Source of the DNA: a virus
Taxonomy: Duplodnaviria; Heunggongvirae; Uroviricota; Caudoviricetes
Reading direction: 5' to 3' (one strand)
DNA length: 6,101 nt
IMG/VR virus record: IMGVR_UViG_2660238061_000003
The notes beneath the pieces are model-generated. The model did not search any database, was not told the DNA's origin, and saw nothing but the letters and a program-made list of their open reading frames with translations. Below, one piece after another: positions 1-6,101 of the stretch. The translations under genes and the position numbers were made by a program. The number at the start of each line of letters is the position of its first letter. The first letter of the stretch is position 1.

Positions 1-23
1 TCAGATAATGCCCGATGACTTTG
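1..23 (-). mobile_element. IS1 internal fragment near the right end (insB 3' region), cut by the window edge and the N-run
   Basis: Reverse complement CAAAGTCATCGGGCATTATCTGA matches my recollection of IS1 about 45-70 nt inside its right terminus. Only 23 nt, so identity is tentative. Confidence 0.5.
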
Positions 24-33
24 NNNNNNNNNN

Positions 34-480
34 AATGTATTCCTGAAGCGTTCTCAGTGCTGTTTGGTCGCGGATAATTCCGTCCCGGATATCGAGAACG
101 TTTCGTCCAGCAACTGGAGAGAGTTCGACGGTGGCATCATTGCCCATGCCGGAGGCGCTGGAGGTTTCGGCTGAGGATGGCACAGAGCATTTTCCTTTGA
201 CGAGCACCCGACCACCATTATCAAGCTTGCGCCGAAGAGCATCATTTTCAGCTTTCGCATCAGCCAACTCCTTCGTGTATTTAGCATCGAGTACATCAGC
301 AGCACGCTGGCGTTGCTGCATGTCAGTAATGGTGGCGGTCGCCTGCTTCAGCTCACTGACTTTTTTATCACGCTGTTCTTTGTAGGCGATGGCGTTATCA
401 CGGTAATGATTGACCGCCCACGACAGGCAGACGATGATGCAGATAACCAGAGCATAAATAATCGCGGCGACTCTGCTCAC
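34..480 (-). CDS. Rz: Rz i-spanin (inner-membrane spanin subunit), 3' end lost at the N-run
   Basis: Minus-strand ORF with an N-terminal hydrophobic segment ([19 protein letters not shown]) followed by a charged, helical periplasmic region, closely resembling lambda Rz as recalled. Likely start is GTG at 480-478, overlapping the R stop TGA at 479-477 (GTGA coupling); the ORF track extends to a TTG at 495. The last six codons of the tracked ORF (KSSGII) come from the IS1 fragment beyond the N-run and are not part of Rz. Confidence 0.85.
54..260 (-). CDS. Rz1: Rz1 o-spanin (outer-membrane lipoprotein) embedded in a different frame of Rz
   Basis: ORF in the alternate frame entirely inside Rz. 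Start chosen by similarity to lambda Rz1 (MRKLKMML vs MLKLKMML). Has a lipobox-like MVVGC and a proline-rich stretch ([11 protein letters not shown]) typical of Rz1. Stop TGA at 56-54. Confidence 0.7.
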
Positions 481-1010
481 TGATCTATCCCCCAACAGGC
501 TAATGCGCTTTCCTGGTCACGACGAATAACCTGTCCATAGCAGTTATTTGAACGTATGCGGCAATCGCGCCCACCATCTTTTATCCACCAGCGAATCGCC
601 TCGCATGCACCCTTACGATCACCGGCATTCAGCCGCTTATAAAACGTCGACGGGAAACACTTACCGGGGCCAATGTTATAGGGACAAAATGACGCTATAC
701 CCGCTTTCTGTGGTTCGGTCAGTGGCACTTTAATATTGCGCTCCACCCATGCCAGCGCCTTATCCCGTTCAATGGCGTTAACCTGGTCGCATTTTTCCTT
801 CGACAGTTTCATACCGGGAAAAACGGGTTTTCCATCCACCACCGTGGCACCCCGACAGATGGTCCAGATGCCGGAACCATCGCGGTATGCCGTTGTGTGG
901 TTACCTTCTTTTTCATTCAGAAACTGGTCGAGAATATCAGGCGCAGGCGCACCGACGGCAATCAGTGCCAGAACGGCAGCCGACAGGCCGTATCTGATTT
1001 TTACGTTCAT
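477..1010 (-). CDS. R: SAR endolysin (T4-type lysozyme fold, phage 21 / Stx-phage R-like)
   Basis: 177-aa ORF. N-terminal Gly/Ala-rich weakly hydrophobic signal-anchor-release segment ([18 protein letters not shown]). Catalytic triad spacing E-x8-D-x5-T in [16 protein letters not shown]. Strong recalled similarity to lambdoid prophage lysozymes of E. coli (RrrD/RrrQ/933W R type). Confidence 0.9.
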
Positions 1011-1115
1011 GGATATTTATCAGGATTTATCGGTTTCTGAACCCTGGATATGTTTATCTGTCCCGGCCTGTTGAATCAGGCAAGGAATAGTTAAATACAA
1101 TAGAGAGGATTGTTT

Positions 1116-1388
1116 ATGGACAATAGCACCATTTCTCTACAGGAGTTGCTCGACTGCATTTCCAAGCTTCGGGATGATGTAAATGCCCTTACTGTCGCAT
1201 TTTCATATCTGGCATTCTCAATTCCCAAGGAACAAATGCAACCAACACTGGCATCGCTCCAGCTTGAATCACTCAACCCCAAATGGTCCCAGCAACAACA
1301 AAATTCTTTCAAGTGGCTGGCGGTATTACTGGAAGAAAAATATGCTGGTGAAATTACCATTTCGGCGGAGTCTTCAGAGAACCAGTAA
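1116..1388 (+). CDS. hypothetical acidic 90-aa protein, no predicted transmembrane segment, function unknown
   Basis: Clean ORF with ATG at 1116 preceded by GAGAGGA (1103-1109) and stop TAA at 1386-1388. The overlapping minus-strand ORF 1091..1486 is low-complexity and crosses an N-run. No family recognised from memory. Confidence 0.4.
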   Translation: MDNSTISLQELLDCISKLRDDVNALTVAFSYLAFSIPKEQMQPTLASLQLESLNPKWSQQQQNSFKWLAVLLEEKYAGEITISAESSENQ

Positions 1389-1441
1389 TTCTTCCCGGTA
1401 GCTTTCCTTTGTAGGTTATCCACACATTCTGNNNNNNNNNN

Positions 1442-1978
1442 GACGAAAGGGGATACGGGAAAACGTAAAACCTTCGTGAACACCACGCTCGGTGAGACGT
1501 GGGAAGCGAAAATCGGCGAACGTCCGGATGCTGAAGTGATGGCAGAGCGGAAAGAGCATTATTCAGCGCCCGTTCCTGACCGTGTGGCTTACCTGACTGC
1601 CGGTATCGACTCCCAGCTGGACCGCTACGAAATGCGCGTATGGGGATGGGGGCCGGGTGAGGAAAGCTGGCTGATTGACCGGCAGATTATTATGGGTCGC
1701 CACGACGATGAACAGACGCTGCTGCGTGTGGATGAGGCCATCAATAAAACCTATACCCGCCGGAATGGTGCAGAAATGTCGGTATCCCGTATCTGCTGGG
1801 ATACTGGCGGGATTGACCCGACCATTGTGTATGAACGCTCGAAAAAACATGGGCTGTTCCGGGTGATCCCCATTAAAGGGGCATCCGTCTACGGAAAGCC
1901 GGTGGCCAGCATGCCACGTAAGCGAAACAAAAACGGGGTTTACCTTACCGAAATCGGTACGGATACCGCGAAAGAGCA
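1442..1978 (+). CDS. A: terminase large subunit (lambda gpA-like) internal fragment, copy 1; no native start or stop
   Basis: Translation GDTGKRKTFVNTTLGETWEAKIGERPDAEVMAERKEHYSAPVPDRVAYLTAGIDSQLDRYEMRVWGWGPGEESWLIDRQIIMGRHDDEQTLLRVDEAINKTYTRRNGAEM...LTEIGTDTAKE matches the middle of lambda gpA as recalled. Bounded on both sides by N-runs. Confidence 0.85.
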
Positions 1979-1988
1979 NNNNNNNNNN

Positions 1989-2275
1989 TCTGACCGGCAA
2001 ACTTATCCGCAGCGAGGATGAGGGGCTGGTCACCCACTGGCACTATGACGAAGCAGACCGCCTCACGCACCGCACCGTGAATGGCGAAACCGCAGAGCGG
2101 TGGCGGTATGACGAACGCGGCTGGCTGACAGACACCAGCCATATCAGCGAAGGGCACCGGGTGGCGGTGTATTACGGATATGATGAGAAAGGCCGGCTGA
2201 CCGGTGAGCGTCAGACGGTGCATCATCCGCAGACGAATGAACTGCTCTGGCAGCATGAGACCAGACATGCGTACA
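1989..2275 (+). CDS. rhs: Rhs-family core fragment (YD repeats), internal piece
   Basis: Open frame from 1990 encodes LTGKLIRSEDEGLVTHWHYDEADRLTHRTVNGETAERWRYDERGWLTDTSHISEGHRVAVYYGYDEKGRLTGERQTVHHPQTNELLWQHETRHAY, with repeated YDxxGRL-type motifs typical of E. coli Rhs cores. Flanked by N-runs. Confidence 0.8.
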
Positions 2276-2285
2276 NNNNNNNNNN

Positions 2286-5273: not shown

Positions 5274-5432
5274 AACAATTCCCTGAATGTATGTGGGTCT
5301 ATTAGTAGTTCATTTTATAACACCACTTTACAGGAAACCGTGACATGAATAACTACTGAATGCGAGCGGTTTTCCAAAATTGTTCATTTGCCTGATTTTT
5401 CAGCGATTGAAACTACACGTTGCAATTTGCCG

Positions 5433-5461
5433 TTGACACATTCGGGCGGAATTCATATGAT
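5433..5461 (+). promoter_or_regulatory. sigma70 promoter of the tRNA-Ala operon (-35 TTGACA, 17-bp spacer, -10 TATGAT), followed by a GC-rich discriminator
   Basis: TTGACA at 5433-5438 and TATGAT at 5456-5461 with exact 17-bp spacing. GCCGCCC follows immediately (stringent-type discriminator). Lies about 32 nt upstream of the first tRNA. Confidence 0.7.
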
Positions 5462-5493
5462 GCCGCCCGTCAACTCGACAAGCTTTACGTGAC

Positions 5494-5569
5494 GGGGCTA
5501 TAGCTCAGCTGGGAGAGCGCTTGCATGGCATGCAAGAGGTCAGCGGTTCGATCCCGCTTAGCTCCACCA
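5494..5569 (+). tRNA. alaW: tRNA-Ala (anticodon GGC), complete with encoded CCA
   Basis: GGGGCTATAGCTCAGCTGGGAGAGCGCTTGCATGGCATGCAAGAGGTCAGCGGTTCGATCCCGCTTAGCTCCACCA: canonical cloverleaf, anticodon loop ATGGCAT with GGC. alaW versus alaX is assigned by promoter-proximal position only. Confidence 0.93.
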
Positions 5570-5608
5570 AATTTTGCACCCAGCAAACTTGGTACGTAAA
5601 CGCATCGT

Positions 5609-5670
5609 GGGGCTATAGCTCAGCTGGGAGAGCGCTTGCATGGCATGCAAGAGGTCAGCGGTTCGATCCC
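5609..5670 (+). tRNA. alaX: tRNA-Ala (GGC), second tandem copy, 3' 14 nt missing at the N-run
   Basis: Identical to the first copy over 62 nt after a 39-nt spacer. The sequence after the N-run (TATTTC...) is not the tRNA 3' end. Confidence 0.85.
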
Positions 5671-5680
5671 NNNNNNNNNN

Positions 5681-5809
5681 TATTTCATTTGCAGGCAAAT
5701 TCATGAGCCAATCCGCATCCTGAAGCGGTTTCTTTGCCCTTGCGAGGAGTGTCACTACATGTCCGGTTGCAGCCTGAATCTGTTTTTCCGTCAATTGTTG
5801 TTCTGCCAT
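5681..5809 (-). CDS. small hypothetical protein, N-terminal 43 codons (cut by the N-run)
   Basis: ATG at 5809-5807 preceded by a consensus AGGAGG Shine-Dalgarno (5824-5819, 9-nt spacing). Encodes MAEQQLTEKQIQAATGHVVTLLARAKKPLQDADWLMNLPANEI. The longer tracked ORF 5558..5839 runs into the tRNA antisense and is not credible. Confidence 0.35.
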
Positions 5810-5828
5810 ATCGTTGTTCCTCCTCATT

Positions 5829-6101
5829 TTATTGTGCATGACGGTCTTTAAGAGTACAGGCTGAACCGTAGCGGCCCAGGGGCTGTGGCTGACGCTCGAG
5901 GGAATCGCTCCTCGATTTAGGCTCCGGCGCCGTTGGTTTATGGGGTTTCATAATTATCGTGTCGACACTTTCAAGGGCAGTAAATGTGCACGAACATTCA
6001 AGATTCTGGCACTGATACCATGAGCGCTTAACCGATGGGGCTTCATAGGCGCTGGTTCTGGCATGAGCGACCGTGCCACATTCAGGACATTTCAGGGCCA
6101 T
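5829..6101 (-). CDS. ogr: Ogr/Delta-family zinc-finger late transcription activator (P2 Ogr / P4 Delta-like)
   Basis: MALKCPECGTVAHARTSAYEAPSVKRSWYQCQNLECSCTFTALESV has the CxxC...CxxxxC zinc finger and AHxRTS motif of P2 Ogr as recalled. The start ATG coincides with the window edge (6101); stop TAA at 5831-5829. About 18 aa longer at the C-terminus than the 72-aa P2 Ogr. Confidence 0.75.
   Translation of the reverse strand: MALKCPECGTVAHARTSAYEAPSVKRSWYQCQNLECSCTFTALESVDTIIMKPHKPTAPEPKSRSDSLERQPQPLGRYGSACTLKDRHAQ

Follow-up and report, generated by a model that had tools for sequence, protein, structure and literature searches.

Scaffolded draft assemblies of whole-genome shotgun (WGS) data carry fixed-length placeholders of N between separate contigs; in some assemblers and scaffolders the 'artificial gap' is a run of exactly 10 N, and a run of at least 10 N is treated as a gap by NCBI. 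In short-read de Bruijn assemblies, collapsed-repeat contigs end tens of bases inside a repeated sequence. Two genetic elements are also relevant here, the late region of lambdoid prophages (holin-lysozyme-Rz, terminase, tail) and the P4-like satellite with its arrangement tRNA/tmRNA-int-defence hotspot-psu-delta ... alpA ... primase. This contribution deals with a stretch of 6,101 nucleotides (nt), filed in IMG/VR as the Caudoviricetes record IMGVR_UViG_2660238061_000003 and in the following called the window, that contains pieces of both elements between runs of N. We are almost certain that the window, being part of a scaffolded draft assembly, does not represent native chromosome but an assembly artefact without biological novelty, because it is an exact substring of a WGS record, all of its gaps are runs of exactly 10 N (N10), its pieces have separate native loci, no adjacent pair of them is contiguous in any closed genome and the same contig ends have different partners in isogenic lines.

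The window corresponds letter for letter to positions 838055-844155 of the WGS record JRRN01000033.1 (4,666,050 bp; GCA_001413425.1), which was found through an exact match to the lysozyme protein encoded in the window. A published strain table assigns GCA_001413425.1 to E. coli 'RU1 MA5' and the neighbouring accessions to RU1, RU1 MA1-MA12, RU1 LB1-LB12 and RU1 BHI lines (PMC9638481). RU1 is an isolate from human stool, and MA1-MA12 are mutation-accumulation (MA) lines that were propagated from it through single colonies for ~5,900 generations; the sole reads described for the MA lines are 100-bp Illumina paired ends, and the RU1 ancestor was sequenced by the 454 method and assembled with Newbler (PMC4263409). 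Neither the MA assemblies nor their scaffolding are described in the latter article. The assemblies with which the window was compared, eleven of the MA and LB series comprising the ancestor RU1 and ten sister lines, are those of the ancestor and its near-isogenic descendants.

A character scan found twelve N runs in the window and no other character besides A, C, G and T in its 6,101 nt. As the preliminary description of the window had stated, each of the twelve is exactly 10 nt long; they are located at 24-33, 1432-1441, 1979-1988, 2276-2285, 2368-2377, 2759-2768, 3056-3065, 3504-3513, 4250-4259, 4554-4563, 4807-4816 and 5671-5680. The runs separate thirteen blocks (B1 to B13) of 23 to 1398 nt, nearly every one of which has a reading frame that is open at one or both ends. 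It had also been claimed that coding frames, a tRNA and a promoter break at the runs, and this is the case: in addition to the open frames, the tRNA gene alaX is cut after 62 of its 76 nt and a P1 promoter of a ribosomal RNA (rrn) operon has no -35 element. The same spacer length prevails in the whole strain series. All 17 N runs in 25.6 kb of JRRN01000033.1 (from 833883 onward; loci L004 and L012) are N10, and nine loci of sister lines contain 61 N10 runs and one run of 456 N (61/62 N10). RU1 LB12 has 27 N10 runs in one 20-kb stretch, and the shortest blocks between gaps in the RU1-series records comprise 57 nt. No N runs were present in the loci of unrelated assemblies or in the 54-kb Newbler contig of the ancestor. 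Runs that are all of length 10 are the deterministic signature of software; since N is not a base, chance is not at issue. The 456-N run, which is located in RU1 LB5 (L014 around 14038), is the sole gap not of length 10 among ~80 in the RU1 series.

To place the junctions, 5,426 complete E. coli genomes were searched with the whole window, with the pair B12+B13 and with two composite queries. The latter were used because a BLAST search with the whole window could not exclude small joined pairs, which are outranked by the 1.4-kb block B2; they combined the 100 nt of each block end next to a junction, a design in which a joined pair, if there were one, would score above any single block. The best place found with the whole window covered B2 only, every top place found with the composite queries covered one block only, and at least 80% of the B12+B13 pair was covered in none of the 5,426 genomes. 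No closed genome thus holds any adjacent pair from junction 2|3 to junction 12|13 on one strand within about 0.8-1.3 kb. Since each of the blocks B2 to B13 has a native home in closed genomes, these tests are meaningful. B1, with its 23 nt, is too short for BLAST, and junction 1|2 was judged by comparison of the sister assemblies. Larger gaps were addressed by mapping all blocks on regions of ±20 kb around closed-genome matches of B2, B3, B6, B8, B9/B13, B10 and B11 and on smaller K-12 or IAI1 regions for B4, B5, B7 and B12. In these home regions only blocks of the same element type co-occurred, never in the arrangement of the window, and no adjacent neighbour was found in the required position. 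A comparison of the blocks with closed E. coli genomes, as proposed in the preliminary description, therefore does not place adjacent blocks at adjacent coordinates.

The isogenic lines allow the fate of single contig ends to be followed. Blocks of the window recur at 100% identity in the assemblies of the ancestor and the ten sister lines. B2, a prophage lysis module, is 100% identical in five sister assemblies, with a full 1398-nt match and the same ends in LB12, LB5 and LB3 and a shorter match in MA12 and MA7. Its left end stops at the same base (...GGAATACATT) in MA5, LB12 and LB5, and beyond the N10 three unrelated sequences are found, namely an end of the insertion sequence (IS) IS1, sequence from the cusS side and sequence from the ybbJ/cueR side. 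This left end simply runs on natively (AGGACGCAATGCC...) in LB3, as it does in intact prophages of unrelated strains. The right end of B2 runs natively into ydfR-family and holin genes in 7 of 8 other loci; it is joined to a terminase fragment in MA5 only, and MA7 breaks ~60 nt earlier. In MA12, MA1, MA10 and MA8, B13 stands alone on a contig of 1.6-2.5 kb, and it is 100% identical in the ancestor RU1, where it is part of an intact P4-like satellite (L015). In the scaffolded lines the neighbours of B13 differ each time. The preliminary description had proposed that repeat-boundary contigs were stitched together by fixed spacers and that gene neighbourhood across the gaps is uninformative. Both proposals are supported by the WGS record, the closed genomes and the isogenic lines.

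In all likelihood the short-read assembly of RU1 MA5 broke at IS1, rrn and Rhs sequences, at paralogous prophages and P4-like satellites, at tandem tRNAs and at an adhesin array, and these breaks at repeats left a large number of very short contigs. The contigs were then ordered or scaffolded into multi-megabase records with a fixed 10-N placeholder at each join, and the small repeat-derived contigs became clustered in an order and orientation that is not that of the genome. This step was presumably performed without long-range physical evidence, since 100-bp paired ends cannot carry a scaffold of 4.67 Mb across rrn operons of 5 kb. Block ends in repeats were found for B1 and B10, for B7 on both sides, for B12 on the right, and for B3 and B6 at the right end that they share. 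In both B1 and B7 the contig reaches exactly 58 nt into an IS1 terminus, with no mismatch to IS1A; B12 extends over 62 nt of the second copy in a tandem pair of identical tRNA-Ala genes, and B3 and B6 are two alleles with the same final base. The left end of B13 is 55-67 nt away from the break points of three scaffolded sister assemblies. Such ends are typical of graph assemblers that meet repeats with short reads. The long contig that flanks the patchwork on its far side stops inside nikC, of which 115 of 277 codons are present (L012 5124-5471); nikC is not known to occur in more than one copy, and in K-12 rhsB is located just past nikR.

Several points weigh against this explanation. The left end of B12 is located inside yfeD at nt 96 (window 4817), where no repeat was detectable and no IS is attached, in contrast to the other block ends that were examined. 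No single k-mer length fits all breaks, given 58 nt into IS1 and 62 nt into alaX. Finally, the presence of several blocks of the same element type (B2/B3/B6/B11; B9/B13) means that the clustering is not entirely random and that weak real linkage may have been used. An estimate of the assembler's k from the depth of repeat penetration was dropped because the distances at the two IS1 ends and at alaX are inconsistent.

There is a small chance that a few of the joins reflect genuine proximity in RU1 MA5 and that part of the cluster marks a region that is truly dense in repeats and prone to rearrangement; for example, IS1 copies and two paralogous lambdoid prophages could be close together. It is very improbable that the window as a whole is a true scaffold, in which order and orientation are right and each N10 represents a real gap of unknown, possibly multi-kilobase size. 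Such gaps would be compatible with the closed-genome junction tests, which join pieces only within the short distance given above, and with the prophage of strain S30, in which relatives of B11 (+), B3/B6 (-) and B2 (+) are found in that order within 18 kb of one lambdoid element. However, the order in the window is B2 (+), B3 (+), B6 (+), B11 (+) relative to S30; the terminase blocks and B11 are all on the wrong side of B2, and the former are also inverted. The window thus does not have the native lambdoid late order: the terminase has the opposite strand and lies on the other side in S30 and PCP06021, and intact prophages with this lysis cassette keep the native order. The early remark that the terminase is in the wrong position and orientation with respect to the lysis cassette was therefore correct, the native location being the other side and the same coding strand.

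The pieces of P4-like satellites lead to the same result. B13 precedes B9 by 3.4-3.8 kb on one strand in S21, in 700462 and in the ancestor RU1. In the window B9 comes first and is followed by three foreign blocks (adhesin, tail and yfeCD-tRNA) and only then by B13, and the P4-like order tRNA-int-hotspot-psu-delta-...-primase is not present as one element. The ancestor copy in which B13 is found at 100% identity matches B9 at only 97.7%, and by this difference in identity B9 and B13 probably come from different P4-like copies. The succession of B12 (alaX, +) and B13 (psu'/delta, -) does have the orientation of a native tRNA-int-hotspot-psu-delta arrangement, which would suit a true scaffold and made junction 12|13 a candidate for a real P4-like attachment site at alaX. 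The candidate was rejected, since 0 closed genomes join B12 and B13, alaX is continued by pdeA in 5,422 of the 5,426 genomes, and the P4-like copies of the RU1 lineage sit at ssrA or without a tRNA nearby. A true scaffold is further contradicted by the home regions without a single neighbour in the required position, by the changing partners of the same contig end in isogenic lines and by the short reach of the paired ends across rrn operons.

We give next to no credence to a real contiguous mosaic locus in which ten bases were masked or uncalled at twelve sites: although N can stand for uncalled bases, the deposited NCBI record has the identical N10 runs, N10 occurs throughout the sister assemblies, the flanks of the runs from 2|3 to 12|13 are never contiguous in closed genomes, and the native next bases of B2, B5 and B12 differ from what comes after the N run. 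It is just as hard to believe that MA5 was truly rearranged via IS1 or prophages into a junkyard of gene fragments, although IS1 termini and the ~5,900 generations of the MA lines under relaxed selection might suggest it, because IS1 is involved at only two block ends, the fragments are not decayed but 100% identical to intact sequence of the ancestor and sister lines, N10 patchworks in other orders occur in other lines including population samples (LB12 with its 27 runs), and real junctions would be read through and not replaced by N10.

The contents of the single blocks are as follows. B1 (1-23) represents the last 23 nt of a 58-nt IS1 terminus, as judged from the 58 nt up to window position 23 and the K-12 IS1A terminus (0 mismatches), and is the end of a long unique contig to the left of the window in JRRN01000033.1. 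B2 (34-1431, minus strand) is a lambdoid lysis module of the Qin/rrrQ type with matches to Pfam Phage_lysis and Phage_lysozyme. It consists of an Rz-like lysis gene without its last 6 codons (34-480, minus strand; Phage_lysis), a complete gene for a lysozyme of 177 amino acids (aa) (477-1010, minus strand; Phage_lysozyme) and the last 26 codons of a YdfR-family gene (within 34-1431, minus strand), which was identified by closed-genome annotation. The best closed-genome match of B2 has 98.0% identity and is annotated as rrrQ / lysis protein / YdfR. Gene calls in related loci also define a conserved hypothetical open reading frame (ORF) of 90 aa (1116-1388, plus strand). This ORF is antisense between the lysozyme gene and the ydfR-family gene and was found at the same position in 10 of 10 retrieved lysis-cassette loci; it has no match in Pfam or NCBIfam, and closed genomes label it 'hypothetical protein'.

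B3 (1442-1978, plus strand) is an internal fragment of a phage terminase large subunit with 178 codons and both ends open, covering positions 31-215 of 294 of Pfam GpA_nuclease; it is 99.3% identical to the terminase of strain 90-3040. B6 (2378-2758, plus strand; 126 codons) is a second allele of the same fragment with 97.6% identity to B3 over 380 nt and 99.7% identity to the terminase of strain PCP06021. Between the two alleles, B4 (1989-2275, plus strand) is an internal Rhs core fragment of 95 codons, open at both ends, that corresponds to positions 689-783 of 1261 of NCBIfam RHS_core (E = 2.5e-54) and is 95.5% identical to K-12 rhsB. B5 (2286-2367, minus strand) contains the -10 element of an rrn P1 promoter and the P1-P2 leader and is 100% identical to NC_000913.3 4166343-4166424, upstream of rrsB (rrnB). 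A complete rrn P1 promoter, with UP element, -35 and -10 at native spacing, is not present in B5: the UP element and the -35 hexamer are lacking, and the native TTGTCA would follow 6 nt past the end of the block, where the window has N10.

B7 (2769-3055), which had not been named in the preliminary description, is composed of a partial duplicate of serU (tRNA-Ser), intergenic DNA and an IS1 terminus, as determined by comparison with IAI1 and IS1A. Its left end is located within a 62-nt duplicate of the 3' part of serU (minus strand); intergenic DNA without annotation then extends to 2997, and the remainder (2998-3055) is the first 58 nt of the IS1 terminus. Nucleotides 2-229 of B7 are 100% identical to an unannotated site of IAI1 near bioA-ybhB and a gene for an AraC-family regulator. 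In the inspected closed genomes (IAI1, MLI110 and others) the first 229 nt have a full-length 100% match at one place only, and copy counts for B7 as a whole mix this part with the IS1 end. The serU duplicate (window 2769-2810; L022 3978-4040) is identical at 61 of 62 positions in IAI1 and has remnants of tail-fibre genes nearby; it contains a run of C that is one base longer in the RU1 lines (C7) than in IAI1 (C6). The site has the appearance of a remnant left by an element with a partial copy of serU. Because of similar map positions (~0.85 Mb), B7 was also considered as a neighbour of the P4-like element, an assumption that was given up as ±20 kb in 700462 and S21 holds only B9 and B13. B8 (3066-3503) is the divergent centre of an IS200/IS605-family element, with the first 85 codons of tnpB/insQ (minus strand) and the first ~47 codons of tnpA (plus strand), as recognised by NCBIfam matches to TnpB and IS200 transposase. 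In strain 2017.04.03CC an insQ/tnpA element that lies between ydcO and ydcL matches B8 at 99.8% identity.

B9 (3514-4249, plus strand) is an internal primase-helicase fragment of a P4-like satellite with 245 codons (Pfam Toprim_3). It is present in 231 of the 5,426 closed genomes, single-copy, inside P4-like elements and with up to 98.4% identity. The other satellite piece, B13, contains a complete 90-aa ogr/delta-like gene (5829-6101, minus strand; Pfam Ogr_Delta) and, downstream of delta, the first 43 codons of a psu-family gene (within 5681-6101, minus strand) that was assigned by comparison with P4-like elements; the contig of B13 runs on past the end of the window. The gene designated 'Ogr' in the preliminary description is the delta gene of a P4-like satellite and not ogr of P2. 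Satellites related to B9 and B13 differ in their cargo between integrase and psu (L015 11772-16421; L013 11683-15759; L026 14660-18736; L025 14628-18482). The RU1 ancestor has HamA and a DEAD-box helicase (Hachiman-like), RU1 MA4 and S21 have SIR2 and a DUF87 ATPase at ssrA, and strain 700462 has a reverse transcriptase at thrW. Such varied cargo agrees with what is known of defence hotspots in P4-like satellites.

B10 (4260-4553, minus strand) comprises exactly one 294-nt unit (98 codons) of the tandem array of a ydbA-type autotransporter adhesin (NCBIfam BigA-like), with a median of 4 places per closed genome. The ydbA-type autotransporter next to paaY in ATCC 8739 has ~6.3 tandem units of 293-294 nt with 85-100% identity (L030 19420-21275). 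The ATCC 8739 gene is interrupted by IS30, and one of its units is 100% identical to B10. B11 (4564-4806, minus strand) is a fragment of a lambda-type tail assembly protein I with 81 codons and both ends open (Pfam Lambda_tail_I); it is found in 3,746 genomes with up to 98.4% identity and the annotation 'tail assembly protein'. B12 (4817-5670) is single-copy core chromosome with 100% identity to NC_000913.3 2518056-2518909. By this identity it contains the first 32 codons of yfeD (within 4817-5670, minus strand) and complete yfeC (4914-5273, minus strand). They are followed by the complete tRNA-Ala(GGC) gene alaW (5494-5569, plus strand; ARAGORN and Rfam) and by the first 62 of 76 nt of alaX (5609-5670, plus strand), which was recognised by comparison with alaW and K-12 and is cut by the N run at 5671. 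The Rfam scan of the window found one complete tRNA only.

The blocks had been called fragments of unrelated repeats in the preliminary description. Many of them are indeed repeat fragments; B12, however, is single-copy core sequence, and B9 is single-copy where it is present. Nor are the blocks all unrelated, as B2, B3/B6 and B11 belong to one lambdoid prophage type and B9 and B13 to P4-like satellites, both sets being scrambled.

The artefact has consequences for the use of these records. Public gene calls run across the spacers (L004 6493-7533, 8990-9569 and 10531-11010; L012 10293-10544): one of 346 aa (window 3478-4518) combines IS200 tnpA', the primase fragment and antisense adhesin, one of 181 aa (window 1442-2021) terminase and Rhs, and one of 159 aa (window 1-480) Rz and the IS1 end; a further call of 83 aa follows after delta. 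Chimeric proteins from N10-crossing calls are therefore already present in protein collections, and conclusions on gene neighbourhood, operons, fusion proteins or synteny across the spacers would be false. The same defect is found in the sampled scaffolded RU1 MA/LB records (eleven assemblies including the ancestor, which itself has no N runs). These records should be split at the N runs before they are used for structural variants or gene context, and the sole value of the present finding is that of a quality-control flag to do so.

In comparison to a P4-like satellite, B13 and B9 match such elements, including one in the ancestor RU1, but have the reverse order and the three foreign blocks between them. 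Likewise, B2, B3/B6 and B11 are 94-99% identical to parts of the lambdoid late region of the S30 prophage, whereas their order and orientation in the window are incompatible with it and pieces of Rhs, rrn, IS and core-genome sequence are interleaved. With collapsed-repeat contigs of short-read de Bruijn assemblies the window shares ends that are tens of bases inside IS1, a tRNA duplicate and the serU duplicate, the shared end of the near-identical B3 and B6, and a block, B10, that equals one repeat unit; it differs from them in the single-copy block B12 with its non-repeat left end and in the unequal penetration of 58 and 62 nt. Compared with other scaffolded draft assemblies with fixed-length N placeholders, the window is unusual in the density of gaps (12 in 6.1 kb), in its very short pieces (down to 57-82 nt) and in their clustering, and it is the same in having one gap length, flanks that are separate contigs and a multi-megabase WGS record with many such gaps as its source.

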